DNA of 64,000 bases, taken from Nemertoderma westbladi (Eukaryota; Animalia; Xenacoelomorpha). The position numbers and the translations under genes were made by a program. Of the stretch, positions 3,049-56,772 are shown one piece after another. The notes below the pieces were generated by a model, which ran no database searches, had not been told where the DNA came from, and was given only the letters and a program-made list of their open reading frames with translations. Numbering within the stretch: the stretch's first letter is position 1; the number at the start of each line of letters is the position of its first letter. Where the stretch lies: contig JAUCBJ010002979.1 of assembly GCA_032718475.1 (NCBI GenBank), forward strand, positions 1,566 through 65,565, given 5' to 3'.

Positions 3049-6000
3049 GTTAGTAGGACATCATGCTTATAATGATGACACGTTAGTAGGACATCATGCT
3101 TATAATAATACATCATGCTTATAATACTGGCACGTTAGTAGGACATCATGCTTATAATACTGGCACGTTAGTAGGACATCATGCTTATAATACTGGCACG
3201 TTAGTAGGACATCATGCTTATAATAATGGCACGTTAGTAGGATATCATGCTTATAATAATGGCACGTTAGTAGGATATCATGCTTATAATAATGGCACGT
3301 TAGTAGGACATCATGCTTATAATAATGGCACGTTAGTAGGACATCATGCTTATAATAATGGCACGTTAGTAGGACATCATGCTTATAATAATGGCACGTT
3401 AGTAGGACATCATGCTTATAATACTGGCACGTTAGTAGGACATCATGCTTATAATACTGGCACGTTAGTAGGACATCATGCTTATAATAATGGCACGTTA
3501 GTAGGACATCATGCTTATAATACTGGCACGTTAGTAGGACATCATGCTTATAATACTGGCACGTTAGTAGGACATCATGCTTATAATAATGGCACGTTAG
3601 TAGGATATCATGCTTATAATAATGGCACGTTAGTAGGATATCATGCTTATAATAATGGCACGTTAGTAGGACATCATGCTTATAATAATGGCACGTTAGT
3701 AGGACATCATGCTTATAATAATGGCACGTTAGTAGGACATCATGCTTATAATGATGACACGTTAGTAGGACATCATGCTTATAATACTGGCACGTTAGTA
3801 GGACATCATGCTTATAATAATGGCACGTTAGTAGGACATCATGCTTATAATAATGGCACGTTAGTAGGATATCATGCTTATAATAATGGCACGTTAGTAG
3901 GACATCATGCTTATAATAATGGCACGTTAGTAGGATATCATGCTTATAATAATGGCACGTTAGTAGGACATCATGCTTATAATAATGGCACGTTAGTAGG
4001 ATATCATGCTTATAATAATGGCACGTTAGTAGGACATCATGCTTATAATAATGGCACGTTAGTAGGACATCATGCTTATAATAATGGCACGTTAGTAGGA
4101 CATCATGCTTATAATAATGGCACGTTAGTAGGACATCATGCTTATAATAATGGCACGTTAGTAGGACATCATGCTTATAATAATGGCACGTTAGTAGGAT
4201 ATCATGCTTATAATAATGGCACGTTAGTAGGACATCATGCTTATAATAATGGCACGTTAGTAGGACATCATGCTTATAATAATGGCACGTTAGTAGGACA
4301 TCATGCTTATAATAATGGCACGTTAGTAGGACATCATGCTTATAATACTGGCACGTTAGTAGGACATCATGCTTATAATACTGGCACGTTAGTAGGACAT
4401 CATGCTTATAATAATGGCACGTTAGTAGGACATCATGCTTATAATAATGGCACGTTAGTAGGATATCATGCTTATAATAATGGCACGTTAGTAGGACATC
4501 ATGCTTATAATAATGGCACGTTAGTAGGACATCATGCTTATAATAATGGCACGTTAGTAGAACATCATGCTTATAATAATGGCACGTTAGTAGGAGGGAC
4601 ATGCTTATAATAATGGCACGTTAGTAGGACATCATGCTTATAATAATGGCACGTTAGTAGGACATCATGCTTATAATAATGGCACGTTAGTAGGACATCA
4701 TGCTTATAATACTGGCACGTTAGTAGGACATCATGCTTATAATACTGGCACGTTAGTAGGACATCATGCTTATAATAATGGCACGTTAGTAGGACATCAT
4801 GCTTATAATAATGGCACGTTAGTAGGATATCATGCTTATAATAATGGCACGTTAGTAGGACATCATGCTTATAATAATGGCACGTTAGTAGGACATCATG
4901 CTTATAATAATGGCACGTTAGTAGGACATCATGCTTATAATAATGGCACGTTAGTAGGACATCATGCTTATAATAATGGCACGTTAGTAGGACATCATGC
5001 TTATAATAATGGCACGTTAGTAGGACATCATGCTTATAATAATGGCACGTTAGTAGGACATCATGCTTATAATAATGGCACGTTAGTAGGACATCATGCT
5101 TATAATAATGGCACGTTAGTAGGACATCATGCTTATAATGATGACACGTTAGTAGGACATCATGCTTATAATACTGGCACGTTAGTAGGACATCATGCTT
5201 ATAATAATGGCACGTTAGTAGGACATCATGCTTATAATAATGGCACGTTAGTAGGATATCATGCTTATAATAATGGCACGTTAGTAGGACATCATGCTTA
5301 TAATAATGGCACGTTAGTAGGATATCATGCTTATAATAATGGCACGTTAGTAGGACATCATGCTTATAATAATGGCACGTTAGTAGGATATCATGCTTAT
5401 AATAATGGCACGTTAGTAGGACATCATGCTTATAATAATGGCACGTTAGTAGGACATCATGCTTATAATAATGGCACGTTAGTAGGACATCATGCTTATA
5501 ATAATGGCACGTTAGTAGGACATCATGCTTATAATAATGGCACGTTAGTAGGACATCATGCTTATAATAATGGCACGTTAGTAGGATATCATGCTTATAA
5601 TAATGGCACGTTAGTAGGACATCATGCTTATAATAATGGCACGTTAGTAGGACATCATGCTTATAATAATGGCACGTTAGTAGGACATCATGCTTATAAT
5701 AATGGCACGTTAGTAGGACATCATGCTTATAATACTGGCACGTTAGTAGGACATCATGCTTATAATACTGGCACGTTAGTAGGACATCATGCTTATAATA
5801 ATGGCACGTTAGTAGGACATCATGCTTATAATAATGGCACGTTAGTAGGATATCATGCTTATAATAATGGCACGTTAGTAGGACATCATGCTTATAATAA
5901 TGGCACGTTAGTAGGACATCATGCTTATAATAATGGCACGTTAGTAGAACATCATGCTTATAATAATGGCACGTTAGTAGGAGGGACATGCTTATAATAA

Positions 6001-6662
6001 TGGCACGTTAGTAGGACATCATGCTTATAATAATGGCACGTTAGTAGGACATCATGCTTATAATAATGGCACGTTAGTAGGACATCATGCTTATAATACT
6101 GGCACGTTAGTAGGACATCATGCTTATAATACTGGCACGTTAGTAGGACATCATGCTTATAATAATGGCACGTTAGTAGGACATCATGCTTATAATAATG
6201 GCACGTTAGTAGGATATCATGCTTATAATAATGGCACGTTAGTAGGACATCATGCTTATAATAATGGCACGTTAGTAGGACATCATGCTTATAATAATGG
6301 CACGTTAGTAGGACATCATGCTTATAATAATGGCACGTTAGTAGGACATCATGCTTATAATAATGGCACGTTAGTAGGACATCATGCTTATAATAATGGC
6401 ACGTTAGTAGGACATCATGCTTATAATAATGGCACGTTAGTAGGACATCATGCTTATAATAATGGCACGTTAGTAGGACATCATGCTTATAATAATGGCA
6501 CGTTAGTAGGACATAATGCTTATAATAATGGCACGTTAGTAGGACATCATGCTTATAATAATGGCACGTTAGTAGGACATCATGCTTATAATAATGGCAC
6601 GTTAGTAGGACATCATGCTTATAATAATGGCACGTTAGTAGGAAGGACATGCTTATAATAAT
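3041..6662 (+). repeat. 33-bp minisatellite (~110 copies) built from the exon 2/intron junction
   Basis: Unit (aat)GGCAC|GTTAGTAGGACATCATGCTTATAAT. The first copies read GATGACAC|GTTAGT, the real exon end and donor. Confidence 0.95.
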
Positions 6663-8927: not shown

Positions 8928-9060
8928 GAACTTTCTACTCACACAAATGGACGATGCATTCACCGAAGATCCAGGGTTGTTAGAGAAAGATTTATCTGCT
9001 ATTGATTTTGACGTAACCAGAAAGGATACGGCCTACAGGGGGGCTGTGGGAGGCATCGAG
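8928..9060 (+). CDS. CCDC83: CCDC83-like exon 5 (its last ~41 nt are the first unit of the 50-bp array)
   Basis: tttcag| acceptor, GAG|gtaggt donor. Encodes NFLLTQMDD...RKDTAYRGAVGGIE. Phase 0 fits the exon at 25478. Confidence 0.75.
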
Positions 9061-12000
9061 GTAGGTCGGGGAAGGATACGGCCTACAGGGGGCTGTGGGA
9101 GGCATCGAGGTAGGTCGGGAAAGGATACGGCCTACAGGAGGCTGTGGGAGGCATCGAGGTAGGCTGGGAAAGGATACGGCCTACAGGGGGGCTGTGGGGG
9201 GCATCGAGGTAGGTCGGGAAATGATACGGCCTACAGGGGGGCTGTGGGAGGCATCGAGGTAGGTCGGGAAAAGATACGGCCTACAGTAGGGCTGTGGGAG
9301 GCATCGATGTAGGTGGGGAGAGGATACGGCCTACAGTGGGGATGTGTGAGGCATCGAGGTAGGTCGGGAAAGGATACGGACTACAGGGGGGCTGTGGGAG
9401 GTATCGAGGTAGGTCGAGAAATGATACGGCCTACAGGGGGGCTGTGGGAGGCATCGAGGTAGGTCGGGAAAAGATACGGCCTACAGTAGGGCTGTGGGAG
9501 GCATCGATGTAGGTGGGGAGAGGATACGGCCTACAGTGGGGATGTGGGAGGCATCGAGGTAGGTCGGGAAAGGATACGGCCTACAGGGGGCTGTCGGAGG
9601 CATTGATGTAGGTGGGGAAAGGATACGGCCTACAGGGGGGCTGTGGGGGGCATCGAGGTAGGTCGGGAAAGTATACGGCCTACAGGGGGGCTGTGGGAGG
9701 CATCGATGTAGGTCGGGAAAGGATACGGCCTACAGGGGGCTCTGGGAAGCATCGAGGTAGGTGGGGAAAGGATACGGACTACAGGGGGGCTGTGGGAGGT
9801 ATCGAGGTAGGTCGGGATAGGATACGGCCTACAGGGGGCTGTGGGAGGCATCGAGGTAGGTCGGGAAAGGATACGGACTACAGGGGGGCTGTGGGAGGTA
9901 TCGAGGTAGGTGGGGAAATGATACGGCCTCAGGGGGCTGTGGGAGGCATCGAGGTAGGCTGGGAAAGGATACGGCCTACAGGGGGGCTGTGGGGGGCATC
10001 GATGTAGGTGGGGAGAGGATACGGCCTACAGTGGGGATGTGGGAGGCATCGAGGTAGGTCGGGAAAGGATACGGCCTACAGGGGGGTTGTGGGAGGCATT
10101 GATGTAGGTGGGGAAAGGATACGGCCTACAGGGGGGCTGTGGGGGGCATCGAGGTAGGTCGGGAAAGTATACGGCCTACAGGGGGGCTGTGGGAGGCATC
10201 GATGTAGGTCGGGAAAGGATACGGCCTACAGGGGTCTCTGGGAAGCATCGAGGTAGGTGGGGAAAGGATACGGACTACAGGGGGGCTGTGGGAGGTATCG
10301 AGGTAGGTCGGGAAAGGATACGGCCTACAGGGGGCTGTGGGAGGCATCGAGGTAGGTCGGGAAAGGATACGGACTACAGGGGGGCTGTGGGAGGTATCGA
10401 GGTACGTGGGGAAAGGATACGGCCTCAGGGGGCTGTGGGAGGCATCGAGGTAGGTCGGGAAAGGATACGGCCTACAGGGGGCTGTGGGAGGCATCGAAAG
10501 GATACGGACTACAGGGGGGCTGTGGGAGGTATCGAGGTAGGTGGGGAAAGGATACGGCCTACAGGGGGCTGTGGGAGGCACCGAGGTAGGTCGTGAAAGG
10601 ATACGGACTACAGGGGGGCTGTGGGAGGTATCGAGGTAGGTAGGGAAAGGATACGGCCTACAGGGGGCTGTGGGAGGCATCGAGGTAGGTCGGGAAAGGA
10701 TACGGCCTACAGGGGGCTGTGGGAGGCATCGAAAGGATACGGACTACAGGGGGGCTGTGGGAGGTATCGAGGTAGGTCGGGAAATGATACGGCCTACAGG
10801 GGGGCTGTGGGAGGCATCGAGGTAGGTCGGGAAAAGATACGGCCTACAGTGGGGCTGTGGGAGGTATCGAGGTAGGTCGGGAAAGGATACGGCCTACAGG
10901 GGGGCTGTGGGAGGTATCGAGGTAGGTGGGGAAAGGATACGGCCTACAGGGGGGTTGTGGGAGGCATTGATGTAGGTGGGGAAAGGATACGGCCTACAGG
11001 GGGGCTGTGGGGGCATCGAGGTAGGTCGGGAAAGGATACGGCCTACAGGGGGGTTGTGGGAGGCATTGATGTAGGTGGGGAAAGGATACGGCCTACAGGG
11101 GGGCTGTGGGGGCATCGAGGTAGGTCGGGAAAGTATACGGCCTACAGGGGGGCTGTGGGAGGCATCGATGTAGGTCGGGAAAGGATACGGCCTACAGGGG
11201 GCTGTCGGAGGCATTGATGTAGGTGGGGAAAGGATACGGCCTACAGGGGGGCTGTGGGGGGCATCGAGGTAGGTCGGGAAAGTATACGGCCTACAGGGGG
11301 GCTGTGGGAGGCATCGATGTAGGTCGGGAAAGGATACGGCCTACAGGGGGCTCTGGGAAGCATCGAGGTAGGTGGGGAAAGGATACGGACTACAGGGGGG
11401 CTGTGGGAGGTATCGAGGTAGGTCGGGATAGGATACGGCCTACAGGGGGCTGTGGGAGGCATCGAGGTAGGTCGGGAAAGGATACGGACTACAGGGGGGC
11501 TGTGGGAGGTATCGAGGTAGGTGGGGAAAGGATACGGCCTCAGGGGGCTGTGGGAGGCATCGAGGTAGGCTGGGAAAGGATACGGCCTACAGGGGGGCTG
11601 TGGGGGGCATCGATGTAGGTGGGGAGAGGATACGGCCTACAGTGGGGATGTGGGAGGCATCGAGGTAGGTCGGGAAAGGATACGGCCTACAGGGGGGTTG
11701 TGGGAGGCATTGATGTAGGTGGGGAAAGGATACGGCCTACAGGGGGGCTGTGGGGGGCATCGAGGTAGGTCGGGAAAGTATACGGCCTACAGGGGGGCTG
11801 TGGGAGGCATCGATGTAGGTCGGGAAAGGATACGGCCTACAGGGGTCTCTGGGAAGCATCGAGGTAGGTGGGGAAAGGATACGGACTACAGGGGGGCTGT
11901 GGGAGGTATCGAGGTAGGTCGGGAAAGGATACGGCCTACAGGGGGCTGTGGGAGGCATCGAGGTAGGTCGGGAAAGGATACGGACTACAGGGGGGCTGTG

Positions 12001-15000
12001 GGAGGTATCGAGGTACGTGGGGAAAGGATACGGCCTCAGGGGGCTGTGGGAGGCATCGAGGTAGGTCGGGAAAGGATACGGCCTACAGGGGGCTGTGGGA
12101 GGCATCGAAAGGATACGGACTACAGGGGGGCTGTGGGAGGTATCGAGGTAGGTGGGGAAAGGATACGGCCTACAGGGGGCTGTGGGAGGCACCGAGGTAG
12201 GTCGTGAAAGGATACGGACTACAGGGGGGCTGTGGGAGGTATCGAGGTAGGTAGGGAAAGGATACGGCCTACAGGGGGCTGTGGGAGGCATCGAGGTAGG
12301 TCGGGAAAGGATACGGCCTACAGGGGGCTGTGGGAGGCATCAAAAGGATACGGACTACAGGGGGGCTGTGGGAGGTATCGAGGTAGGTCGGGAAATGATA
12401 CGGCCTACAGGGGGGCTGTGGGAGGCATCGAGGTAGGTCGGGAAAAGATACGGCCTACAGTGGGGCTGTGGGAGGTATCGAGGTAGGTCGGGAAAGGATA
12501 CGGCCTACAGGGGGGCTGTGGGAGGTATCGAGGTAGGTGGGGAAAGGATACGGCCTACAGGGGGGTTGTGGGAGGCATTGATGTAGGTGGGGAAAGGATA
12601 CGGCCTACAGGGGGGCTGTGGGGGCATCGAGGTAGGTCGGGAAAGGATACGGCCTACAGGGGGGTTGTGGGAGGCATTGATGTAGGTGGGGAAAGGATAC
12701 GGCCTACAGGGGGGCTGTGGGGGCATCGAGGTAGGTCGGGAAAGTATACGGCCTACAGGGGGGCTGTGGGAGGCATCGATGTAGGTCGGGAAAGGATACG
12801 GCCTACAGGGGGCTGTCGGAGGCATTGATGTAGGTGGGGAAAGGATACGGCCTACAGGGGGGCTGTGGGGGGCATCGAGGTAGGTCGGGAAAGTATACGG
12901 CCTACAGGGGGGCTGTGGGAGGCATCGATGTAGGTCGGGAAAGGATACGGCCTACAGGGGGCTCTGGGAAGCATCGAGGTAGGTGGGGAAAGGATACGGA
13001 CTACAGGGGGGCTGTGGGAGGTATCGAGGTAGGTCGGGATAGGATACGGCCTACAGGGGGCTGTGGGAGGCATCGAGGTAGGTCGGGAAAGGATACGGAC
13101 TACAGGGGGGCTGTGGGAGGTATCGAGGTAGGTGGGGAAAGGATACGGCCTCAGGGGGCTGTGGGAGGCATCGAGGTAGGCTGGGAAAGGATACGGCCTA
13201 CAGGGGGGCTGTGGGGGGCATCGATGTAGGTGGGGAGAGGATACGGCCTACAGTGGGGATGTGGGAGGCATCGAGGTAGGTCGGGAAAGGATACGGCCTA
13301 CAGGGGGGTTGTGGGAGGCATTGATGTAGGTGGGGAAAGGATACGGCCTACAGGGGGGCTGTGGGGGGCATCGAGGTAGGTCGGGAAAGTATACGGCCTA
13401 CAGGGGGGCTGTGGGAGGCATCGATGTAGGTCGGGAAAGGATACGGCCTACAGGGGTCTCTGGGAAGCATCGAGGTAGGTGGGGAAAGGATACGGACTAC
13501 AGGGGGGCTGTGGGAGGTATCGAGGTAGGTCGGGAAAGGATACGGCCTACAGGGGGCTGTGGGAGGCATCGAGGTAGGTCGGGAAAGGATACGGACTACA
13601 GGGGGGCTGTGGGAGGTATCGAGGTACGTGGGGAAAGGATACGGCCTCAGGGGGCTGTGGGAGGCATCGAGGTAGGTCGGGAAAGGATACGGCCTACAGG
13701 GGGCTGTGGGAGGCATCGAAAGGATACGGACTACAGGGGGGCTGTGGGAGGTATCGAGGTAGGTGGGGAAAGGATACGGCCTACAGGGGGCTGTGGGAGG
13801 CACCGAGGTAGGTCGTGAAAGGATACGGACTACAGGGGGGCTGTGGGAGGTATCGAGGTAGGTAGGGAAAGGATACGGCCTACAGGGGGCTGTGGGAGGC
13901 ATCGAGGTAGGTCGGGAAAGGATACGGCCTACAGGGGGCTGTGGGAGGCATCAAAAGGATACGGACTACAGGGGGGCTGTGGGAGGTATCGAGGTAGGTC
14001 GGGAAATGATACGGCCTACAGGGGGGCTGTGGGAGGCATCGAGGTAGGTCGGGAAAAGATACGGCCTACAGTGGGGCTGTGGGAGGTATCGAGGTAGGTC
14101 GGGAAAGGATACGGCCTACAGGGGGGCTGTGGGAGGTATCGAGGTAGGTGGGGAAAGGATACGGCCTACAGGGGGGTTGTGGGAGGCATCGAGGTAGGTC
14201 GGGAAAGGATGCGGCCTACAGGGGGCTGTGGGAGGCATCGAGGTAGGTCGTGAAAGGATACGGCCTACAGGGGGCTGTGGGAAGCATCGAGGTAGGTGGG
14301 GAAAGGATACGGCCTACAGGGGGGCTGTGGGAGGCATCGAGGTAGGTCGGGAAAGGATACGACCTACAGGGGGCCTGTGGGAGGCATCGAGGTAGGTCGG
14401 GAAAGGATGCGGCCTACAGGGGGCTGTGGAAGGCATCGAGGTAGGTCGGGAAAGGATACGGCCTACAGGGGGGCTGTGGGAGGCATCGAGGTAGGTCGGG
14501 AAAGGATACGGCCTACAGGGGGCTGTGGGAGGCATCGAGGTAGGTGGGGAAAGGATACGGCCTACAGGGGGGCTGTGGGAGGCATCGAGGTAGGTCGGGA
14601 AAGGATACGGCCTACAGGGGGCCTGTGGGAGGCATCGAGGTAGGTGGGGAAAGGATACGGCCTACAGGGGGGCTGTGGAAGGCATCGAGGTAGGTCGGGA
14701 AAGGATACGGCCTACAGGGGCTGTGGGAGGCATCGAGGTAGGTGGGGAAAGGATACGGCCTACAGGGGGCTGTGGGAGGCATCGAGGTAGGTCGGGAAAG
14801 GATACGGCCTACAGAGGGCTGTGGGAGGCATCGAGGTATGCCGGGAAAGGATACGGTCTACAGGGGGCTGTGGGAGGCATCGAGGTAGGTCGCGAAAGGA
14901 TACGGACTACAGGGGGGCTGTGGGAGGTATCGAGGTAGGTGGGGAAAGGATACGGCCTACAGGGGGCTGTGGGAGGCATCGAGGTAGGTCGGGAAAGGAT

Positions 15001-15936
15001 ACGGCCTACAGGGGGCTGTGGGAGGCATCGAGGTAGGCTGGGAAAGGATACGGCCTACAGGGGGCTGTGGGAGGCATCGAGGTAGGTCGAGAAAGGATAC
15101 GGACTACAGGGGGGCTGTGGGAGGTATCGAGGTAGGTGGGGAAAGGATACGGCCTACAGGGGGCTGTGGGAGGCACCGAGGTAGGTCGTGAAAGGATACG
15201 GACTACAGGGGGGCTGTGGGAGGCATCGAGGTAGGTGGAGAAAGGATACGGCCTACAGGGGGCTGTGGGAGGCATCGAGGTAGGTCGGGAAAGGATGCGG
15301 CCTACAGGGGGCTGTGGAAGGCATCGAGGTAGGTCGTGAAAGGATACGGCCTACAGGGGGCTGTGGGAAGCATCGAGGTAGGTGGGGAAAGGATACGGCC
15401 TACAGGGGGGCTGTGGGAGGCATCGAGGTAGGTCGGGAAAGGATACGACCTACAGGGGGCCTGTGGGAGGCATCGAGGTAGGTCGGGAAAGGATGCGGCC
15501 TACAGGGGGCTGTGGAAGGCATCGAGGTAGGTCGGGAAAGGATACGGCCTACAGGGGCTGTGGGAGGCATCGAGGTAGGTGGGGAAAGGATACGGCCTAC
15601 AGGGGGCTGTGGGAGGCATCGAGGTAGGCCGGGAAAGGATACGGCCTACAGGGGGCTGTGGGAGGCATCGAGGTAGGCCGGGAAAGGATACGGCCTACAG
15701 GGGGCTGTGGGAGGCATCGAGGTAGGTGGGGAAAGGATACGGCCTACAGGGGGGCTGTGGGAGGCATCGAGGTAGGCCGGGAAACGATACGGCCTACAGG
15801 GGGCTGTGGGAGGCATCGAGGTAGGTCGGGAAAGGATGCGGCCTACAGGGGGCTGTGGGAGGCATCGAGGTAGGTGGGGAAAGGATACGGTCTACAGAGG
15901 GCTGTGGGAGGCATCGAGGTAGGTCGGGAAAGGATA
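9020..15936 (+). repeat. 49-50-bp G-rich minisatellite (~140 copies) built from the exon 5/intron junction, with a 1611-bp higher-order repeat
   Basis: Unit GAAAGGATACGGCCTACAGGGGGGCTGTGGGAGGCATCGAG|GTAGGTCGG. Near-identical ORFs recur at 9612/11223/12834. Confidence 0.95.
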
Positions 15937-16235: not shown

Positions 16236-18801
16236 TTATATTAAATACCATTAATTAATTAATACAATTTATATTAAATACCATTAATTAATTAATACAA
16301 TTTATATTAAATACCATTAATTAATTAATACAATTTATATTAAATACCATTAATTAATTAATTCAATTTATATTAAATACCATTAATTAATTAATACAAT
16401 TTATATTAAATACCATTAATTAATTAATACAATTTATATTAAATACCATTAATTAATTAATACAATTTATATTAAATAGCATTAATTAATTAATACAATT
16501 TATATTAAATAGCATTAATTAATTAATTCAATTTATATTAAATACCATTAATTAATTAATACAATTTATATTAAATACCATTAATTAATTAATACAATTT
16601 ATATTAAATACCATTAATTAATTAATACAATTTATATTAAATACCATTAATTAATTAATACAATTTATATTAAATACCATTAATTAATTAATACAATTTA
16701 TATTAAATAGCATTAATTAATTAATTCAATTTATATTAAATACCATTAATTAATTAATACAATTTATATTAAATACCATTAATTAATTAATACAATTTAT
16801 ATTAAATACCATTAATTAATTAATTCAATTTATATTAAATACCATTAATTAATTAATACAATTTATATTAAATACCATTAATTAATTAATACAATTTATA
16901 TTAAATACCATTAATTAATTAATACAATTTATATTAAATAGCATTAATTAATTAATTCAATTTATATTAAATACCATTAATTAATTAATACAATTTATAT
17001 TAAATACCATTAATTAATTAATACAATTTATATTAAATACCATTAATTAATTAATTCAATTTATATTAAATACCATTAATTAATTAATACAATTTATATT
17101 AAATACCATTAATTAATTAATACAATTTATATTAAATACCATTAATTAATTAATACAATTTATATTAAATAGCATTAATTAATTAATTCAATTTATATTA
17201 AATACCATTAATTAATTAATACAATTTATATTAAATACCATTAATTAATTAATACAATTTATATTAAATAGCATTAATTAATTAATACAATTTATATTAA
17301 ATAGCATTAATTAATTAATACAATTTATATTAAATACCATTAATTAATTAATACAATTTATATTAAATAGCATTAATTAATTAATTCGATTTATATTAAA
17401 TACCATTAATTAATTAATACAATTTATATTAAATACCATTAATTAATTAATTCAATTTATATTAAATACCATTAATTAATTAATACAATTTATATTAAAT
17501 ACCATTAATTAATTAATACAATTTATATTAAATAGCATTAATTAATTAATACAATTTATATTAAATAGCATTAATTAATTAATTCAATTTATATTAAATA
17601 CCATTAATTAATTAATACAATTTATATTAAATACCATTAATTAATTAATACAATTTATATTAAATACCATTAATTAATTAATACAATTTATATTAAATAG
17701 CATTAATTAATTAATACAATTTATATTAAATACCATTAATTAATTAATACAATTTATATTAAATACCATTAATTAATTAATACAATTTATATTAAATAGC
17801 ATTAATTAATTAATACAATTTATATTAAATACCATTAATTAATTAATACAATTTATATTAAATACCATTAATTAATTAATACAATTTATATTAAATACCA
17901 TTAATTAATTAATACAATTTATATTAAATACCATTAATTAATTAATACAATTTATATTAAATACCATTAATTAATTAATACAATTTATATTAAATACCAT
18001 TAATTAATTAATACAATTTATATTAAATAGCATTAATTAATTAATACAATTTATATTAAATACCATTAATTAATTAATACAATTTATATTAAATACCATT
18101 AATTAATTAATACAATTTATATTAAATAGCATTAATTAATTAATACAATTTATATTAAATACCATTAATTAATTAATACAATTTATATTAAATACCATTA
18201 ATTAATTAATACAATTTATATTAAATACCATTAATTAATTAATACAATTTATATTAAATACCATTAATTAATTAATACAATTTATATTAAATAGCATTAA
18301 TTAATTAATACAATTTATATTAAATACCATTAATTAATTAATACAATTTATATTAAATAGCATTAATTAATTAATACAATTTATATTAAATACCATTAAT
18401 TAATTAATACAATTTATATTAAATACCATTAATTAATTAATACAATTTATATTAAATACCATTAATTAATTAATACAATTTATATTAAATAGCATTAATT
18501 AATTAATACAATTTATATTAAATAGCATTAATTAATTAATTCAATTTATATTAAATACCATTAATTAATTAATACAATTTATATTAAATACCATTAATTA
18601 ATTAATACAATTTATATTAAATACCATTAATTAATTAATACAATTTATATTAAATAGCATTAATTAATTAATACAATTTATATTAAATACCATTAATTAA
18701 TTAATACAATTTATATTAAATACCATTAATTAATTAATACAATTTATATTAAATACCATTAATTAATTAATACAATTTATATTAAATACCATTAATTAAT
18801 T
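16236..18801. repeat. 33-bp very AT-rich satellite (~78 copies)
   Basis: Unit TTTATATTAAATACCATTAATTAATTAATACAA with ACC/AGC and TAC/TTC variants. Confidence 0.95.
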
Positions 18802-19634
18802 GAATAATTTAGTCATGGATTTCCATGATTACAAGCCATATCAGCAAATATTCCAGAACATTTTTAAACAAACTGGTGGGTAGGCCATGCTGGTACCACC
18901 GGCCACATATCGGCCACATGTATCATTTACAACGCCTTTGTTTTTACCTTGCGTAGGCCTGCTGCCGTTATGTATTTATTCGTGTTTAATTTCCCATATA
19001 TTATTCTACTTATTCCTCGCCATGAATTCATCTTTGGGCACAAGTAAAGCAAAATGGTCCCTACTTCGCCCTGTCTACACCACCTGCCATTTTTTTCACC
19101 AATCCTTTTTTAGTGTTTTTTTTTATGCTTTTTTGGTAGTGGTCAATGTTCTAGAAAATTAGTATATATGTTTTTTTTATGGTAGCTAGTGTTTTTTTAC
19201 TAGCTAGTATTTATTGAAATTATAAAAAATGCGACGTTGCTATTTTAGGTTTAAACTACAACAGGTTAACCAACAGTTTACAGTTTATATTCGTTTTTTT
19301 TAATTTTCAAAAAAATACAAGCTACCATTAAAAAAATATCTACGAATTTTCTAGAACATTCACCAATACCAAAAAAAACCTTAAAAAACACTAATAAATT
19401 TATTTGTAATATTAATATATTATTATATTATAATATATTGTAATAAATTAAACTAATTTTGGGACTCTTTTATTTGACAAGTGCCCATCTTTGGCTTATA
19501 ACATATCAGGCAAATGACATCCCTGCCATTTATAAAACTCGTTATGTTATTGATTAACGTTCAACACTGTTAATTATCTAATTAATTAATTACCATAATA
19601 CTAGCTAGTTAAACGATTCTTGGGCAAAGTTGCT

Positions 19635-23844: not shown

Positions 23845-24527
23845 CATCGTCCATTCCACTAGGATGCATTGTCCACACCACTATAATGCATCGTCCACAC
23901 CACTATGATGCATCGTCCATATCACTATGCTATGATCCTTCGTCTACACCACTATGATCCATCGTCCATACCACTATGATGCATCGTCCATACCACTATG
24001 CTATGATCCATCGTCCACACCACTAGGATACATCGTCCACACAACTAGGATGCATCGTCTACACCACTATGATGCATAGTCCATATTACTATGCTATGAT
24101 CCTTCGTCTACACCACTATGATCCATCGTCCATACCACTATGATGCATCGTCCACACCACTAGGATACATCGTCCACACCACTAGGATACATCGTCCACA
24201 CAACTAGGATGCATCGTCTACACCACTATGATCCATCGTCCATACCACTATGATGCATCGTCCATACCACTATGCTATGATCCATCGTCCACACCACTAG
24301 GATACATCGTCCACACCACTCACTATGATGCATCGTCCACACCACTATGATGCATCGTCCATATTACTATGCTATGATCCTTCGTCTACACCACTATGAT
24401 CCATCGTCCATACCACTATGATGCATCGTCCACACCACTAGGATACATCGTCCACACCACTATGTTGCATCGTCCAGTCCATTAGGATGCATCGTTCACA
24501 CCACTATGATGCATCGTCCACACCACT
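23845..24527. repeat. ~22-bp degenerate tandem repeat just 3' of the presenilin gene
   Basis: Variants of CCACTATGATGCATCGTCCACA. Confidence 0.88.
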
Positions 24528-24830
24528 GCACTCGCCGGTCAGCCCGCAACGCAACAGTTCGCGACCAGCCATCTAACTCCCCAATTAATCTGCATTATCT
24601 ACTCTGTTGTCTTTTAGCAGAAGTTTCACGAATGTTAATTATAGGAAGGGGGGGGGGGGGATATAGGGGTCTTAACCTCGAATGGTAAGTTTATTTTACC
24701 GAAAATAACTTATCTTTTATTGGCGCAATTGTAGGACTAATCCCATCACATGCGTACTTTTTAACCGGGTAGTGTACAAATTTAGGAATTGCATAATTTT
24801 TCTTAAAATTAATATCTCATATCTCTCCAA

Positions 24831-24873
24831 ACCACGTACGCGTTTCAACCTTACTGGGTCTCATCAGCGTGGT
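24831..24873 (-). ncRNA. Minimal type I hammerhead ribozyme directly downstream of a tRNA-like head (24874-24935)
   Basis: ACCACG-CUGAUGA-GACC(CAGUAA)GGUU-GAAAC-GC-GUA^CGUGGU. The catalytic core is complete, stem I is 6 bp and stem III is the palindromic ACGCGU. Confidence 0.85.
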
Positions 24874-25477
24874 GTCGGATTCGAACCTGGGACCTCGAGG
24901 TGGAAGCCGAGACTCCAACCACTAGGCCACAGGTTCTTGAGATATGGAGTATTAATTTCAAAGCCAGTTGCCATTTTATTAGCCCCTGATTTTTATTATT
25001 GATAGTAACAAGGTCATGCCAAGACCTTGTTATCAGTGAATGTTAATGGCTGACCACAACGTTTCCTCTCGTCTGCCGACTACCATAAAACTGATCACTC
25101 ATAGACTGATCGATTCTACAATCGCAGCAACCGACAAATCGTATCCATAGTTCCTGCAAGGTGTTACTAGGTTTTGCATTTCTCGGTAACTGTCGACATT
25201 TTACAAAGCCTCGTTTATTAAGTTAGCTTTGTATTTTATGTCATGAACAACGTGCCGCATCCTGGTGTATGTGTACCATCAATGGGTCTGGTGACTTCTT
25301 CCCTAAATTGATAATTTAACATTGAGACGAGATATGGGATGGGGCCCCCCACCCATTCCCGTCTCAAATATACATATGCTCTACTGAACGTACCTGGAAT
25401 GTTACAGATTGGTCTTATCCGGATGACACACAATATCTGGTCTAATACTCTGTAACTGATGAAATTTTTCTGTACAG

Positions 25478-26070: not shown

Positions 26071-28595
26071 GAGTAAGTAAGACTATGTCTTTGGTGTAAG
26101 TAAGACTATATCTTTGGTGTAAGTAAGACTAAATCTTTGGTGTAAGTAAGACTATATCTTTGGTGTAAGTAAGACTATATCTTTGGTGTAAGTAAGACTA
26201 TATCTTTGGTGTAAGTAAGACCATCTTTGGTGTAAGTAAGACTAAATCTTTGGTGTAAGTAAGACTAAATCTTTGGTGTAAGTAAGACTATATCTTTGGT
26301 GTAAGTAAGACTATATCTTTGGTGTAAGTAAGACTATATCTTTGGTGTAAGTAAGACCATCTTTGGTGTAAGTAAGACTAAATCTTTGGTGTAAGTAAGA
26401 CTAAATCTTTGGTGTAAGTAAGACTATATCTTTGGTGTAAGTAAGACCATCTTTGGTGTAAGTAAGACTAAATCTTTGGTGTAAGTAAGACTAAATCTTT
26501 GGTGTAAGTAAGACTATATCTTTGGTGTAAGTAAGACTATATCTTTGGTGTAAGTAAGACTATATCTTTGGTATAAGTAAGACCATATTTGGTATAAGTA
26601 AGACCATCTTTGGTGTAAGTAAAACTATATCTTTGGTATAAGTAAGACCATCTTTGGTATAAGTAAGACCATCTTTGGTGTAAGTAAGACTATATCTTTG
26701 GTGTAAGTAATACCATCTTTGGTGTAAGTAAGACTATATCTTTGGTATAAGTAAGACCATCTTTGGTATAAGTAAGACCATCTTTGGTGTAAGTAAGACT
26801 ATATCTTTGGTATAAGTAAGACCATCTTTGGTATAAGTAAGACCATCTTTGGTGTAAGTAAGACTATATCTTTGGTGTAAGTAAGACTATATCTTTGGTG
26901 TAAGTAAGACTATATCTTTGGTATAAGTAAGACCATATTTGGTATAAGTAAGACCATCTTTGGTGTAAGTAAGACTATATCTTTGGTATAAGTAAGACTA
27001 TATCTTTGGTGTAAGTAAGACTAAATCTTTGGTGTAAGTAAGACTAAATCTTTGGTGTAAGTAAGACTATATCTTTGGTATAAGTAAGACCATCTTTGGT
27101 GTAAGTAAGACTATATCTTTGGTATAAGTAAGACCATCTTTGGTATAAGTAAGACCATCTTTGGTGTAAGTAAGACTATATCTTTGGTGTAAGTAAGACT
27201 AAATCTTTGGTGTAAGTAAGACTAAATCTTTGGTGTAAGTAAGACTAAATCTTTGGTGTAAGTAAGACCATCTTTGGTGTAAGTAAGACTAAATCTTTGG
27301 TGTAAGTAAGACTATGTCTTTGGTGTAAGTAAGACTAAATCTTTGGTGTAAGTAAGACTAAATCTTTGGTGTAAGTAAGACTAAATCTTTGGTGTAAGTA
27401 AGACTATGTCTTTGGTGTAAGTAAGACTAAATCTTTGGTGTAAGTAAGACTAAATCTTTGGTGTAAGTAAGACTAAATCTTTGGTGTAAGTAAGACTAAA
27501 TCTTTGGTGTAAGTAAGACCATCTTTGGTGTAAGTAAGACTAAATCTTTGGTGTAAGTAAGACTATGTCTTTGATGTAAGTAAGACTAAATCTTTGGTGT
27601 AAGTAAGACTAAATCTTTGGTGTAAGTAAGACTATGTCTTTGGTGTAAGTAAGACTAAATCTTTGGTGTAAGTAAGACTAAATCTTTGGTGTAAGTAAGA
27701 CTAAATCTTTGGTGTAAGTAAGACCATCTTTGGTATAAGTAAGACCATCTTTGGTGTAAGTAAGACTAAATCTTTGGTGTAAGTAAGACTATATCTTTGG
27801 TGTAAGTAAGACCATCTTTGGTGTAAGTAAGACTAAATCTTTGGTGTAAGTAAGACTAAATCTTTGGTGTAAGTAAGACTATATCTTTGGTGTAAGTAAG
27901 ACTATATCTTTGGTGTAAGTAAGACTATATCTTTGGTATAAGTAAGACCATATTTGGTATAAGTAAGACCATCTTTGGTGTAAGTAAAACTATATCTTTG
28001 GTATAAGTAAGACCATCTTTGGTATAAGTAAGACCATCTTTGGTGTAAGTAAGACTATATCTTTGGTGTAAGTAATACCATCTTTGGTGTAAGTAAGACT
28101 ATATCTTTGGTATAAGTAAGACCATCTTTGGTATAAGTAAGACCATCTTTGGTGTAAGTAAGACTATATCTTTGGTATAAGTAAGACCATCTTTGGTATA
28201 AGTAAGACTATATCTTTGGTGTAAGTAAGACTATATCTTTGGTGTAAGTAAGACTATATCTTTGGTATAAGTAAGACCATATTTGGTATAAGTAAGACCA
28301 TCTTTGGTATAAGTAAGACCATCTTTGGTATAAGTAAGACTATATCTTTGGTGTAAGTAAGACTAAATCTTTGGTGTAAGTAAGACTAAATCTTTGGTGT
28401 AAGTAAGACTATATCTTTGGTATAAGTAAGACCATCTTTGGTGTAAGTAAGACTAAATCTTTGGTGTAAGTAAGACTAAATCTTTGGTGTAAGTAAGACT
28501 AAATCTTTGGTGTAAGTAAGACTAAATCTTTGGTGTAAGTAAGACTATATCTTTGGTGTAAGTAAGACTATATCTTTGGTGTAAGTAAGACTATA
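26071..28595 (+). repeat. 21/23-bp minisatellite (~110 copies) filling almost all of CCDC83 intron 7; most units carry GTAAGT
   Basis: Units GTAAGTAAGACTATATCTTTGGT and GTAAGTAAGACCATCTTTGGT, with ATAAGT variants. Starts 24 nt after the donor at 26047. Confidence 0.95.
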
Positions 28596-40761: not shown

Positions 40762-43700
40762 AGAGTCTATTAAATACTTTTGTCTTTAGTAATTCAACTG
40801 ACTTACGGGAGAGTCTATTAAATACTTTTGTCTTTAGTAATTCAACTGACTTTGGGAGATTCTATGAAACACTTTGTTGTTGGTCAATTCCGTTAGTAAT
40901 TCAACTGACTTACGGGAGAGTCTATTAAATACTTTTGTCTTTAGTAATTCAACTGACTTACGGGAGAGTCTATGAAACACTTTGTTGTTGGTCAATTCCG
41001 TTAGTAATTCAACTGACTTACGGGAGAGTCTATTAAATACTTTTGTCTTTAGTAATTCAACTGACTTACGGGAGAGTCTATGAAACGCTTTGTTGTTGGT
41101 CAATTCCGTTAGTAATTCAACTGACTTACGGGAGAGTCTATGAAACGCTTTGTTGTTGGTCAATTCCGTTAGTAATTCAACTGACTTACGGGGGAGTCTA
41201 TTAAATACTTTTGTCTTTAGTAATTCAACTGACTTACGGGAGAGTCTATGAAACGCTTTGTTGTTGGTCAATTCCGTTAGTAATTCAACTGACTTACGGG
41301 GGAGTCTATTAAATACTTTTGTCTTTAGTAATTCAACTGACTTACGGGAGAGTCTATTAAACGCTTTGTTGTTGGTGAATTCCGTTAGTAATTCAACTGA
41401 CTTACAGGAGAGTCTATTAAATACTTTTGTCTTTAGTAATTCAACTGACTTACGGGAGAGTCTATTAAACGCTTCGTTGTTGGTCAATTACGTTAGTAAT
41501 TCAACTGACTTACGGGAGAGTCTATGAAACGCTTTGTTGTTGGTCAATTCCGTTAGTAATTCAACTGACTTACGGGGGAGTCTATTAAATACTTTTGTCT
41601 TTAGTAATTCAACTGACTTACGGGAGAGTCTATGAAACGCTTTGTTGTTGGTCAATTCCGTTAGTAATTCAACTGACTTACGGGGGAGTCTATTAAATAC
41701 TTTTGTCTTTAGTAATTCAACTGACTTACGGGAGAGTCTATGAAACGCTTTGTTGTTGGTCAATTCCGTTAGTAATTCAACTGACTTACGGGGGAGTCTA
41801 TTAAATACTTTTGTCTTTAGTAATTCAACTGACTTACGGGAGAGTCTATGAAACGCTTTGCTGTTGGTCAATTCCGTTAGTAATTCAACTGACTTACGGG
41901 GGAGTCTATTAAATACTTTTGTCTTTAGTAATTCAACTGACTTACGGGAGAGTCTATGAAACGCTTTGTTGTTGGTCAATTCCGTTAGTAATTCAACTGA
42001 TTTACGGGAGAGTCTATTAAATACTTTTGTCTTTAGTAATTCAACTGACTTTGGGAGAGTCTATGAAACGCTTTGTTGTTGGTCAATTCCGTTAGTAATT
42101 CAACTGACTTACGGGGGAGTCTATTAAATACTTTTGTCTTTAGTAATTCAACTGACTTACGGGAGAGTCTATGAAACGCTTTGTTGTTGGTCAATTCCGT
42201 TAGTAATTCAACTGACTTACGGGGGAGTCTATTAAATACTTTTGTCTTTAGTAATTCAACTGACTTACGGGAGAGTCTATGAAACGCTTTGTTGTTGGTC
42301 AATTCCGTTAGTAATTCAACTGACTTACGGGAGAGTCTATTAAATACTTTTGTCTTTACTAATTCAACTGACTTCGGGAGAGTCTATGAAACGCTTTGTT
42401 GTTGGTCAATTCCGTTAGTAATTCAACTGACTTACGGGAGAGTCTATGAAACGCTTCGTTGTTGGTCAATTCCATTAGTAATTCAACTGACTTACGGGAG
42501 AGTCTATTAAATACTTTCGTCTTTAGTAATTTAACTGACTTACGGGAGAGTCTATTAAATACTTTTGTCTTTAGTAATTTAACTGACTTACGGGAGAGTC
42601 TATGAAACGCTTTGTTGTTGGTCAATTCCGTTAGTAATTCAACTGACTTACGGGAGAGTCTATTAAATACTTTCGTCTTTAGTAATTCAACTGACTTACG
42701 GGAGAGTCTATTAAATACTTTTGTCTTTAGTAATTCAACTGATTTACGGGAGAGTCTATTAAATACTTTTGTCTTTAGTAATTCAACTGATTTACGGGAG
42801 AGTCTATTAAATACTTTTGTCTTTAGTAATTCAACTGACTTACGGGAGAGTCTATTAAACGCTTTGTTGTTGGTCAATTCCGTTAGTAATTCAACTGACT
42901 TACGGGGGAATCTATTAAATACTTTTGTCTTTAGTAATTCAACTGACTTACGGGAGAGTCTATGAAACGCTTTGTTGTTGGTCAATTCCGTTAGTAATTC
43001 AACTGACTTACGGGAGAGTCTATTAAATACTTTCGTCTTTAGTAATTCAACTGACTTACGGGAGAGTCTATTAAATACTTTCGTCTTTAGTAATTCAACT
43101 GACTTACGGGAGAGTCTATTAAATACTTTTGTCTTTAGTAATTCAACTGACTTACGGGAGAGTCTATTAAACGCTTTGTTGTTGGTCAATTCCGTTAGTA
43201 ATTCAACTGACTTACGGGGGAATCTATTAAATACTTTTGTCTTTAGTAATTCAACTGACTTACGGGAGAGTCTATTAAACGCTTTGTTGTTGGTCAATTC
43301 CGTTAGTAATTCAACTGACTTACGGGGGAATCTATTAAATACTTTTGTCTTTAGTAATTCAACTGACTTACGGGAGAGTCTATTAAACGCTTTGTTGTTG
43401 GTCAATTCCGTTAGTAATTCAACTGACTTACGGGGGAATCTATTAAATACTTTTGTCTTTAGTAATTCAACTGACTTACGGGAGAGTCTATTAAACGCTT
43501 TGTTGTTGGTCAATTCCGTTAGTAATTCAACTGATTTACGGGAGAGTCTATTAAATACTTTTGTCTTTAGTAATTCAACTGACTTACGGGAGAGTCTATT
43601 AAACGCTTTGTTGTTGGTCAATTCCGTTAGTAATTCAACTGACTTACGGGGGAATCTATTAAATACTTTTGTCTTTAGTAATTCAACTGACTTACGGGGA

Positions 43701-44259
43701 TTCTATTAAACGCTTTGTTGTTGGTCAATTCCGTTAGTAATTCAACTGACTTACGGGGGAATCTATTAAATACTTTTGTCTTTAGTAATTCAACTGACTT
43801 ACGGGAGAGTCTATTAAACGCTTTGTTGTTGGTCAATTCCGTTAGTAATTCAACTGACTTACAGGAGAGTCTATTAAATACTTTTGTCTTTAGTAATTCA
43901 ACTGACTTACGGGAGAGTCTATGAAACGCTTTGTTGTTGGTCAATTCCGTTAGTAATTCAACTGACTTACGGGAGAGTCTATTAAATACTTTCGTCTTTA
44001 GTAATTCAACTGACTTACGGGAGAGTCTATTAAATACTTTTGTCTTTAGTAATTCAACTGACTTACGGGAGAGTCTATTAAACGCTTTGTTGTTGGTCAA
44101 TTCCGTTAGTAATTCAACTGACTTACGGGGGAATCTATTAAATACTTTTGTCTTTAGTAATTCAACTGACTTACGGGAGAGTCTATGAAACGCTTTGTTG
44201 TTGGTCAATTCCGTTAGTAATTCAACTGACTTACGGGGGAGTCTATGAAACGCTTTGTT

Positions 44260-44298
<39 letters not shown>

Positions 44299-46829
44299 AT
44301 AGCCGTATATTTATTATTAAAGCTTGTAAAAACAGCTGATGCACATCAGATCGCATAGCAACCACCACCAACTACCAGACAAATATACACTGTTAAATTA
44401 ATACTACAGTTAGTATATGATACTGTCTGACTGTCCTCCAAACTTGGAGGGTTGTTATCCACAGTCGCCTACGCCGGGTTGCAGTCGGCATTGCTGTGGA
44501 TGATCGACTCCACGTCGCACCGAACCGGACGCCGCTTAGCTGATCGACAGCCGCGAAGGCACAGGAGGGCTGACCGCAAAAGGGCGAAACTCAACCTCCT
44601 GCGAACCCACACAACACACTCTGAATAGCGGACCTCGCGTTTGTCAGCCAGTTTCAACGCGAGACGCTTGATAAACTGTGTGGCTGACGGTGAAGCTCCA
44701 CCAAACGCAGAGAATATAAGGGGAGTGAAGCTGGCGTGCTCCACCTCCCTCAACCGCTCTTCGTATTTGAGCCTCTTGCGAGACTTATGGTGTAGGTGGG
44801 ATGCCGGAAGGGACATCGCGGCGTTGGTGTCCGCCAGCGGGTTGAAGACAGACACGTCGATGAACGTTTTCCGGAAACGGTTTCCCCAGAATCCGCTCAC
44901 CGACACATCCAGCCTCGCCTGCTGGTCCGTCGATGTCGACCGATGGCTGAACGTCTCGCCCGATAGTGGCTGCAGAAGCGGTTCCACCCCGACATTGTTT
45001 GAAACGCTTTGTTGTTGGTCAATTCCGTTAGTAATTCAACTGACTTACGGGAGAGTCTATTAAATACTTTTGTCTTTAGTAATTCAACTGACTTACGGGA
45101 GAGTCCATAAAACGCTTCGTTGTTGGTCAATTCCGTTAGTAATTCAACTGACTTACGGGAGAGTCTATTAAATACTTTTGTCTTTAGTAATTCAACTGAC
45201 TTACGGGAGAGTCTATGAAACGCTTTGTTGTTGGTCAATTCCGTTAGTAATTCAACTGACTTACGGGAGAGTCTATGAAACGCTTTGTTGTTGGTCAATT
45301 CCGTTAGTAATTCAACTGACTTACGGGAGAGTCTATGAAACGCTTTGTTGTTGGTCAATTCCGTTAGTAATTCAACTGACTTACGGGAGAGTCTATTAAA
45401 TACTTTTGTCTTTAGTAATTCAACTGACTTACGGGAGAGTCTATGAAACGCTTTGTTGTTGGTCAATTCCGTTAGTAATTCAACTGACTTACGGGAGAGT
45501 CTATTAAATACTTTTGTCTTTAGTAATTCAACTGACTTACGGGAGAGTCCATAAAACGCTTCGTTGTTGGTCAATTCCGTTAGTAATTCAACTGACTTAC
45601 GGGAGAGTCTATGAAACGCTTTGTTGTTGGTCAATTCCATTAGTAATTCAACTGACTTACGGGAGAGTCTATTAAATACTTTTGTCTTTAGTAATTCAAC
45701 TGACTTACGGGAGAGTCCATGAAACGCTTCGTTGTTGGTCAATTCCGTTAGTAATTCAACTGATTTACGGGAGAGTCTATTAAATACTTTTGTCTTTAGT
45801 AATTCAACTGACTTACGGGGAGTCCATGAAACGCTTCGTTGTTGGTCAATTCCGTTAGTAATTCAACTGACTTACGGGAGAGTCTATGAAACGCTTCGTT
45901 GTTGGTCAATTCCGTTAGTAATTCAACTGATTTACGGGAGAGTCTATTAAATACTTTTGTCTTTAGTAATTCAACTGACTTACGGGAGAGTCTATGAAAC
46001 GCTTCGTTGTTGGTCAATTCCGTTAGTAATTCAACTGATTTACGGGAGAGTCTATTAAATACTTTTGTCTTTAGTAATTCAACTGACTTACGGGAGAGTC
46101 TATGAAACGCTTTGTTGTTGGTCAATTCCGTTAGTAATTCAACTGACTTACGGGATAGTCTATTAAATACTTTTGTCTTTAGTAATTCAACTGACTTACG
46201 GGAGAGTCTATGAAACGCTTTGTTGTTGGTCAATTCCGTTAGTAATTCAACTGACTTACGGGATAGTCTATTAAATACTTTTGTCTTTAGTAATTCAACT
46301 GACTTACGGGAGAGTCTATGAAACGCTTTGTTGTTGGTCAATTTCGTTAGTAATTCAACTGACTTACGGGATAGTCTATTAAATACTTTCGTCTTTAGTA
46401 ATTCAACTGACTTACGGGAGAGTCTATGAAACGCTTTGTTGTTGGTCAATTCCGTTAGTAATTCAACTGACTTACGGGATAGTCTATTAAATACTTTTGT
46501 CTTTAGTAATTCAACTGACTTACGGGAGAGTCTATGAAACGCTTTGTTGTTGGTCAATTTCGTTAGTAATTCAACTGACTTACGGGATAGTCTATTAAAT
46601 ACTTTCGTCTTTAGTAATTCAACTGACTTACGGGAGAGTCTATGAAACGCTTTGTTGTTGGTCAATTCCGTTAGTAATTCAACTGATTTACGGGAGAGTC
46701 TATTAAATACTTTTGTCTTTAGTAATTCAACTGACTTACGGGAGAGTCTATTAAATACTTTTGTCTTTAGTAATTCAACTGACTTACGGGAGAGTCTATG
46801 AAACGCTTTGTTGTTGGTCAATTCCGTTA
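40762..46829 (-). repeat. Composite 60/48-bp minisatellite (~100 units) built from the exon 3/intron junction of the minus-strand gene
   Basis: Minus-strand units CGGAATTGACCAACAACAAAGCGTTTCATAGACTCTCCC|GTAAGTCAGTTGAATTACTAA (60 bp) and AGACAAAAGTATTTAATAGACTCTCCC|GTAAGTCAGTTGAATTACTAA (48 bp). Confidence 0.95.
44261..44999 (-). mobile_element. 5'-truncated CRE-like non-LTR retrotransposon with restriction-like endonuclease (RLE) C-terminus, poly(A) tail and ~15-bp TSD
   Basis: ORF 44469-44987 has ARLDVSVSGFWG...FIDVSVFNP...KRLKY...FTPLIFSAFGG, an RLE-type motif set. T-run at 44261-44293 is the poly(A). TGAAACGCTTTGTTG is duplicated at 44246-44260 and 45000-45014. Confidence 0.85.
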
Positions 46830-56731: not shown

Positions 56732-56772
56732 GGCTATACGTACGTTTCAACCTATCAGGCCTCATCAGTACC
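56732..56772 (-). ncRNA. Second hammerhead-like motif, between tRNA-type A and B boxes
   Basis: GGUA-CUGAUGA-GGCC(UGAUA)GGUU-GAAAC-GUAC-GUA^UAGCC. Core intact, stem I weak or bulged. Confidence 0.6.

Follow-up and report, generated by a model that had tools for sequence, protein, structure and literature searches.

The element and its place in the window

The window analysed here is a stretch of DNA of 64,000 nucleotides, and its subject is a repeat copy on the minus strand at positions 24640 to 25037, which we read as an insertion of ~400 bp with a target-site duplication. Inside this copy, an A box and a B box of the type used by RNA polymerase III (Pol III) at tRNA genes are followed directly by a type I hammerhead ribozyme, and the two together lie within a pair of inverted-repeat arms. 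The closest gene that could be recognised is a presenilin homologue without introns, after which comes a 22-bp minisatellite (23845-24527). The coordinates of these features are collected in Table 1.

Table 1. Features of the repeat copy and of its surroundings, in window coordinates.
Feature	Position	Strand	Basis and remarks
Dispersed element copy, ~400 bp, GC content 0.41	24640..25037	minus	Contig depth and flanking direct repeat; boundaries good to ~2 nt
Target-site duplication, 5' side of element, GAATGTTAAT on the plus strand	25038..25047		Longest word common to both flanks
Target-site duplication, 3' side of element	24630..24639		2-nt overlap with the element tail TTCCTATAAT
Inverted-repeat left arm, 5' of the tRNA-like module	24939..24961	minus	23 nt, 83% complementary; pairs in the predicted fold
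tRNA-derived module, tRNA positions 8-62	24877..24929	minus	Box composite and hairpin; acceptor stem and T stem gone
A box TGGCCTAGTGG	24929-24919	minus	Pattern match
B box GGTTCGAATCC	24887-24877	minus	Pattern match; 31 nt from the A box, which is tRNA spacing
Type I hammerhead ACCACG-CUGAUGA-GACC/CAGUAA/GGUU-GAAA-CGCG-UA/CGUGGU (last slash, predicted cut)	24873-24831	minus	Descriptor match, fold, Rfam HH9
Inverted-repeat right arm, 5 nt past stem I	24803..24825	minus	23 nt, 83% complementary; pairs in the predicted fold
TTTT run, private to the window copy (family majority TTTC)	24805..24808	minus	Contig variants
Only other T4 on the sense strand, possible Pol III stop ~135 nt past the cut	24702..24705	minus	No variant of at least 10% listed
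13-C run	24648..24660	minus	Other copies have CC and then TTCCTATAAT; contig loose ends at 24658
Intronless presenilin homologue, uninterrupted open reading frame (ORF) of 459 codons	22341-23720	plus	Pfam E 2.1e-74
Tandem arrays	3041-6662, 9020-15936, 16236-18806, 23845-24527, 26073-28595, 40762-46799, 62005-63983		TRF

Pol III boxes fused to a hammerhead ribozyme

Both boxes carry all 11 of their 11 letters and stand at exact tRNA spacing. A composite pattern of the two (T[AG]GC..AGTGG, then 28-40 nt, then GGTTCGA..CC) had a single match in the window and none in 300 dinucleotide shuffles, both strands being searched, in agreement with a first-pass annotation of this DNA that had placed an A box and a B box on its minus strand. 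Between the boxes lies a 5-bp hairpin that resembles an anticodon arm, CUCGG-CUUCCACC-UCGAG, with an 8-nt loop (24911-24894, as read from the sequence). Nine nucleotides separate the left arm of the inverted repeat from the A box, and at the other end a spacer of 3 nt, GAC, leads from the B box to stem I of the ribozyme. Past tRNA position 62, stem I stands in for the 3' strand of the T stem and for the acceptor strand, so that the module is tRNA-derived and yet no tRNA.

Three helices surround the core of the hammerhead, and helix I is the open one. Stem I has 6 bp (ACCACG/CGUGGU) and stem II has 4 bp (GACC/GGUU, with the loop CAGUAA), both without a mismatch, and stem III is the exact palindrome ACGCGU. 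All the letters that define a type I hammerhead are present (C3 U4 G5 A6 N7 G8 A9, G12 A13 A14, A15.1-U16.1 and H17), with C3-A9 at 24867-24861, G12-A15.1 at 24846-24843, U16.1 at 24838 and A17 at 24837, and the predicted scissile bond lies between 24837 and 24836. A descriptor that combined the core, a stem I of at least 5 bp, a stem II of at least 3 bp and U-H at the cut found one match in the window and none in 300 shuffles, while a loose pattern of the core alone matched twice in the window against an expectation of 0.13. The box and ribozyme motifs are real and no chance matches. The first-pass annotation had proposed just this arrangement, a hammerhead fused on the minus strand to tRNA-type Pol III boxes and cut at 24837/24836; the sequence agrees, the B box and stem I are 3 nt apart, and the bond that we predict is the same. 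It had also called the ribozyme intact, which is accurate for the 13 core letters and for A17 but not for position 11.1, where the window copy has U instead of C.

In the same region of the minus strand, we observed that GUGGU of the A box (24917-24923) and the 3' strand of stem I, CGUGGU (24830-24836), can each pair with ACCAC(G) (24868-24873). As the two share this pairing partner, a tRNA-like minihelix could compete with the active fold of the ribozyme. When the region was compared with the tRNA-like mascRNA model of Rfam, the score was 12.2 bits with an E value of 3.5, which is not significant.

Extent of the copy

The ~400 bp of the window copy include an 11-base expansion of the C run, and the family unit is ~390 bp long and non-coding. 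At the 3' end, other copies read CC, then TTCCTATAAT, and then diverge, and the window has 13 C before the same TTCCTATAAT. At the 5' end, the outermost 26 nt of the window copy (25037-25012) have diverged from the other copies, which, as loose contig ends indicate, extend beyond 25011 with a common sequence. An inverted repeat of 13 nt with a 1-nt spacer, TAACAAGGTCATG/CAAGACCTTGTTA, was seen at 25006-25032 inside this diverged end. The 10-nt direct repeat on which the target-site duplication is based is the longest word common to the two 71-nt flanks, and 6 of 2000 shuffles reach that length.

The first-pass annotation had described a compact unit of ~147 bp bracketed by imperfect inverted repeats of 17 nt. 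The arms do exist, with a length of 23 nt, but they are internal to the element and are not its borders. Depth in DNA reads is high and roughly even over 24662-24985, and the copy extends for ~400 bp between its 10-bp direct repeats; the 147-bp stretch is no more abundant than its surroundings and is therefore no unit of its own. A reading of the inverted repeat as a miniature inverted-repeat transposable element was also rejected, as depth in the arms does not exceed that around them and the arms are not bordered by a duplication.

An abundant and uniform repeat family

Family data were taken from contigs of four public DNA runs (X1 to X4, from three studies and one organism) aligned to positions 24500-25300 of the window (801 bp). 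At a likeness of at least 80%, the runs gave 790 (X1), 1168 (X2), 2228 (X3) and 48 (X4) aligned contigs, and those of X1 are divided into 239 at 99% or more, 275 at 95-99%, 193 at 90-95% and 83 below 90%. Summed depth, which according to the tool's own warning is no copy number, ranged from 2.4e5 to 8.2e5 across every bin of 24662-24985, as against mostly 12 to ~100 in the flanks, with at most 968 in one bin of X2, so that element and flank lie about four orders of magnitude apart. Contigs that span a flank as single-copy sequence had a depth of 12-22. Run X4 contains the repeat and lacks the flanks. The repeated stretch covers ~24661-25011 and goes further. The family is very abundant and its copies are very alike, and the repeat family that the first-pass annotation had postulated is a real one, abundant in the organism's DNA reads. 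Depth at the 5' part of the element is ~40% lower than at the 3' part in X1-X3, and this fall is a weak hint at 5'-truncated copies, of a kind of depth reading against which the tool cautions.

At a threshold of 10%, six positions differ from the window in nearly all of the depth, namely 24790, 24793, 24805, 24847, 24915 and 24968. The majority letter at 24847 is C11.1, which gives the canonical G10.1-C11.1 pair, and the family reads CUGAUGAG...CGAAAC at this place. The majority at 24805 (A>G on the plus strand) turns the TTTT run of the window copy into TTTC, by which the terminator-like run is gone and a G-U pair of the 23-bp stem becomes G-C. Minor variants of the core and stem II, at 24865 and 24857, reach at least 10% only in X4, where one contig accounts for each. 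Uniformity is the same over the whole element, which indicates that the family is young without showing a special constraint on the ribozyme.

Several searches were made for the element or its motifs in other collections. In the window itself, blastn with the element returned only the element. A scan of public metagenomes for a B box followed by a hammerhead core gave six loci, all of them bacterial tRNA genes accompanied by a chance CTGATGA...GAAAC, and exact-pattern scans of public collections of genome contigs and viral contigs gave 0 matches. Strings of the element had no match in the full texts searched, a scope outside which supplements, Repbase and Dfam lie, and the supplement of PMC8490949 held no matching string.

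Predicted folding of the RNA

The sense RNA of 24661-25011 has a predicted energy of -97.3 kcal/mol (z -4.09), and 0 of 100 shuffles folded as well; the antisense RNA is weaker (z -2.82). Over the whole RNA, a fraction of 0.61-0.67 is paired. A 159-nt domain has a minimum-energy fold in which the 23-nt arms are paired with each other, stems I and II of the ribozyme are kept, and the tRNA-derived part forms a long imperfect hairpin. Helix III of the monomer consists of one A-U pair with a 4-nt loop, and forcing it to form gives -3.6 vs -9.5 kcal/mol for a 43-mer.

In the two-strand fold, stems I and II are formed in each copy and the two ACGCGU palindromes pair in an intermolecular helix of 6 bp. 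The letters of the window give a dimer energy of -41.9 against 2 x -17.5, and the six majority letters give one of -46.9 against -38.6. Canonical type I hammerheads of animals have 6 bp in helix I, 4 bp in helix II and, closed by a small palindromic loop, 1-2 bp in helix III, and are active as dimers (PMC4209133). The architecture of the modelled dimer is that of these canonical ribozymes. The palindromic stem III had been taken as a sign of the dimer type in the first-pass annotation, a view with which the literature agrees (PMC4209133, PMC6765202) and which is consistent with the ACGCGU/ACGCGU helix of the two-strand fold.

Proposed identity and mechanism

We think it fairly probable that the window holds a target-duplication-flanked copy of a very abundant, non-coding family of ~390 bp, whose RNA is predicted to be made at least in part by Pol III and would likely be cut by the adjoining hammerhead. 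The non-coding sequence, the target duplication and the fall of depth from 3' to 5' suggest a non-autonomous retroposon, which would have spread by reverse transcription with an enzyme supplied by an autonomous element, and a Penelope-like element or a long interspersed nuclear element (LINE) would be candidates for this source. The two boxes would bring in Pol III, with a start ~10 nt before the A box. A hammerhead in a single monomer would be largely inactive because its helix III has only 1-2 bp, and the full-length RNA would thus survive as a template. Cleavage would call for two paired ribozymes, whether within a multimeric or read-through transcript or in trans. Its products would be a head of ~105 nt, counted from a Pol III start, that holds promoter and ribozyme and carries a terminal 2',3'-cyclic phosphate, and a body that begins with a 5'-OH. 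This cleavage scheme is the model proposed for Sm-alpha, an element of schistosomes (blood flukes). With its G-U at 10.1-11.1, the copy in the window has probably been weakened.

A number of results weigh against this reading. On the side of the ribozyme, the window copy has U for C at 11.1 (24847) and hence a G-U at 24860/24847; the window scan with Rfam returned nothing that reached a gathering score, and in a narrowed search the best hammerhead model, HH9, scored 22.4 bits (E 0.0063) as against a gathering score of 52. On the side of the promoter, ARAGORN called zero tRNAs in the whole window, the tRNA model of Rfam stayed unmatched at E values up to 10 in a 91-nt search, and with the T stem and the acceptor stem lost only the boxes and the anticodon-arm-like hairpin are left of the tRNA part. 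In a family that is uniform at the 10% threshold, the ribozyme shows no conservation above that of the remaining element, and summed depth, as stated, does not count copies. The 10-bp flank repeat is only moderately unlikely, as 22 of 1500 (1.5%) real, tandem-free pairs with the same spacing reach it in TRF-masked sequence, and a control over 16-39 kb that contained tandem arrays gave 358 of 1500. No autonomous partner was found in the window, the remnants of reverse transcriptase in it being LINE-like or unclassified.

The position of the promoter is a further point of this kind. The A box begins at nt 109 of the 400-nt copy, so the element's own Pol III transcript would lack the 5' part of the element and the left arm of the stem, and the RNA that propagates would therefore have to start upstream, in an upstream unit, by read-through or at another promoter. 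The short interspersed nuclear element (SINE)-like elements of schistosomes are described as facing the same problem, with a solution in which cleavage leaves the Pol III promoter at the 3' end of the unit and solitary copies stop propagating (PMC6765202). The first-pass annotation had inferred a compact SINE whose Pol III transcript obtains its 3' end by self-cleavage. With an A box 109 nt inside, the cut would part the promoter head from a body of 199 nt, so that the RNA that propagates cannot be one whose 3' end arises by cleavage; the earlier interpretation was right in kind and wrong in the extent of the element and in the role of cleavage.

Alternative readings

The family could be viewed as a strict retrozyme of the kind without long terminal repeats (non-LTR), in which tandem units are read through, cut successively and closed by tRNA ligase into circles of ~350-390 nt that serve as the template. 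The size of the element falls within the 170-400 nt of retrozymes and close to the 350-390 bp of the mussel repeats, and its GC content of 0.41 is below the 45% quoted for retrozyme repeats (PMC7229834); the type I hammerhead and a well-structured sense RNA (z -4.09) suit this reading too. Among the 15 of 34 joints listed, one is a head-to-tail joint, from 25011 to 24671 with 9 letters between, but its depth is 107 and it occurs in one run, as compared with 4.5e5-8.2e5 for the element. In addition, the paired fraction of 0.61-0.67 is below the "above 70%" given for retrozyme RNAs (PMC4918200), and retrozymes are described as promoterless in the review cited (PMC7761336). The window element is a solitary copy with one ribozyme and a 10-bp flanking duplication, so that no circle can be cut from it. 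We regard a strict retrozyme as unlikely. A derivation from a Penelope-like element strikes us as doubtful to a still greater degree in its own right; here the copy would be a ribozyme-bearing pseudo-LTR (pLTR), or a short derivative of one, copied by the reverse transcriptase and GIY-YIG endonuclease of that element, and the boxes would be the pLTR promoter. A tiny palindromic helix III is a hallmark of Penelope-like hammerheads (PMC4209133, PMC6765202), vertebrate non-LTR retrozymes have been proposed as Penelope-like derivatives (bioRxiv 10.64898/2026.07.22.740005), and the AT-rich insertion site resembles what has been reported in vitro for a Penelope-like enzyme (PMC11167929). However, Pfam scans of 76 window ORFs gave zero GIY-YIG matches, there is no Penelope-type ORF beside the copy or elsewhere in the window, and the canonical helices of 6 bp and 4 bp differ from the minimal Penelope-type form with its long helix II (PMC4209133).

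It is very improbable, in our judgement, that the copies are inert relics of a tRNA-derived ancestor which spread as ordinary repeat DNA and are today neither transcribed nor cleaved. Rfam scores below their thresholds, a decayed cloverleaf, the mutation next to the core of the window copy and the low self-cleavage in vitro reported for ribozymes with a short helix III (PMC4209133) would all be expected of such relics. Yet no core letter has been lost, the majority letters of the family give the canonical G10.1-C11.1, neither stem I nor stem II has a mismatch, helix III retains an exact palindrome, the boxes keep 11 of 11 letters at exact tRNA spacing, and a young, uniform family implies recent activity of its RNA. 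Returning to the Pol III-promoted, hammerhead-bearing retroposon that we prefer, we also put forward, tentatively and as a somewhat unlikely extension, that a lineage perhaps outside the schistosomes independently fused a tRNA gene cut at the T loop to a canonical hammerhead, giving a dispersed retroposon with flanking target duplications, a self-promoting relative of retrozymes in which a tRNA-like fold could switch the ribozyme off.

Relation to known elements

The element is best filed in a known class, that of SINE-like retroposons with a tRNA promoter and a hammerhead. By its layout, the closest known systems appear to be the SINE-like hammerhead elements Sm-alpha and Sj-alpha of schistosomes, followed by the non-LTR retrozymes of animals. 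Sm-alpha is a repeat of 335 bp with tens of thousands of copies (PMC6765202, PMC2770079, PMC8490949, PMC4918200), and two schistosome genomes have >38,000 and >5,000 hammerhead matches (PMC2770079, PMC8490949). Copies of Sm-alpha are called tRNA-derived (PMC2770079, PMC4918200); the full tRNA that they contain is given as tRNA-Gln in PMC2770079 and in the text of PMC4918200, and as tRNA-Glu in the legend of figure 7 of PMC4918200. For the SINE-like elements of schistosomes, Pol III appears to be the transcribing polymerase (PMC6765202).

Like Sm-alpha and Sj-alpha, the element is a high-copy repeat of a few hundred bp, here ~390 bp with a depth ~1e4 times that of single-copy contigs, and it carries a tRNA-related Pol III promoter directly upstream of a type I hammerhead with a short helix III, a likeness to the published layout of those elements. 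In contrast to the full tRNA of Sm-alpha, the element keeps tRNA positions 8-62, joined at the T loop to stem I, with the loop CUUCCAC(C), and its tRNA part is of a different anticodon type. It differs from both schistosome elements in that Rfam hammerhead models score below threshold on it and in that most of its copies seem to lie singly and dispersed, with target duplications.

With animal non-LTR retrozymes (PMC7229834), the element shares the type I hammerhead, the unit size, the low GC content, the lack of coding sequence, a structured RNA and the high copy level. Retrozymes, however, are defined by tandem arrays and circular RNA and, according to a review, seem to be without a promoter (PMC7761336), whereas the present copy is solitary and target-duplicated and has an A box and a B box, and head-to-tail joints are rare in element reads among the 15 of 34 joints listed. 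The spacing of the boxes at tRNA distance, the target-site duplication, the non-coding sequence and the high copy level are also found in tRNA-derived SINEs with their type 2 Pol III promoter. Unlike those, the element has its tRNA-like part starting at nt 109 and not at the 5' end, ends in the tail TTCCTATAAT instead of an A-rich or simple-repeat tail, carries a ribozyme, and has no cloverleaf remnant recognisable by ARAGORN or Rfam. The very short palindromic helix III, for which cleavage as a dimer would be expected, is a likeness to the minimal hammerheads in the pLTRs of Penelope-like elements (PMC4209133); the helix I of 6 bp, the helix II of 4 bp, the 4-nt palindromic loop and the lack of a Penelope-type ORF nearby set the element apart from them.

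Ribozyme-bearing short retroposons are widespread in animals. A second family that joins a tRNA promoter directly to a ribozyme would strengthen the case for Pol III as the polymerase of some such elements. A host outside the schistosomes would make it the most informative, since in the literature hammerhead repeats with an internal tRNA sequence are described as an exception found in schistosomes only (PMC4918200). The arrangement would also provide a compact test object, with ~105 nt from the promoter to the cut site. As a consequence for annotation, the stretch is to be treated as repeat DNA and not as a gene feature.

Surroundings of the element

The first-pass annotation had placed the element antisense within CCDC83. 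Pfam scans of 7 + 69 ORFs gave no family that would indicate CCDC83, which is an absence of support and not a disproof, as Pfam's coverage of CCDC83 is uncertain. The closest relatives of the presenilin ORF in a search of 5.8 billion proteins were ~31% identical at best and came from plants and protists, not from animals; the ORF is either a divergent intronless paralogue or the gene of a poorly sampled host. An ORF of 507 aa in the window had no relatives in the protein search, and its atlas scores were at most 0.80.

According to TRF, tandem arrays with periods of ~20 to 220 bp make up 43% of the window, and many of them yield long spurious ORFs. An ORF at 44469-45035 on the minus strand is ~50% identical to the C-terminal part of reverse transcriptase proteins of ~1000 aa (with RVT_1 only) from environmental and genome assemblies, and it is embedded in a tandem array of 48/108 bp. 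Two overlapping ORFs at 51616-52729, also on the minus strand, have weak matches to RVT_1 and DUF6451 and no similarity to the element tail; by their motifs, they look like a remnant of a LINE-type reverse transcriptase.

A second hammerhead-like core, CTGATGAGGCCTGATAGGTTGAAAC, was observed on the minus strand at 56768-56744, with the palindromic ACGUACGU after GAA. It has an A-box-like GTGGCTTAACTAGTTAG on its 5' side and a B-box-like GGTTCAACCCC with a near-intact T arm on its 3' side, so that the ribozyme stands between tRNA-like halves. Its stem I is weak, the hammerhead descriptor is negative, and the Rfam model Hammerhead_3 gives 14.8 bits with an E value of 1.3. The region that contains it, 56739-56806, may be a decayed copy of a related family.

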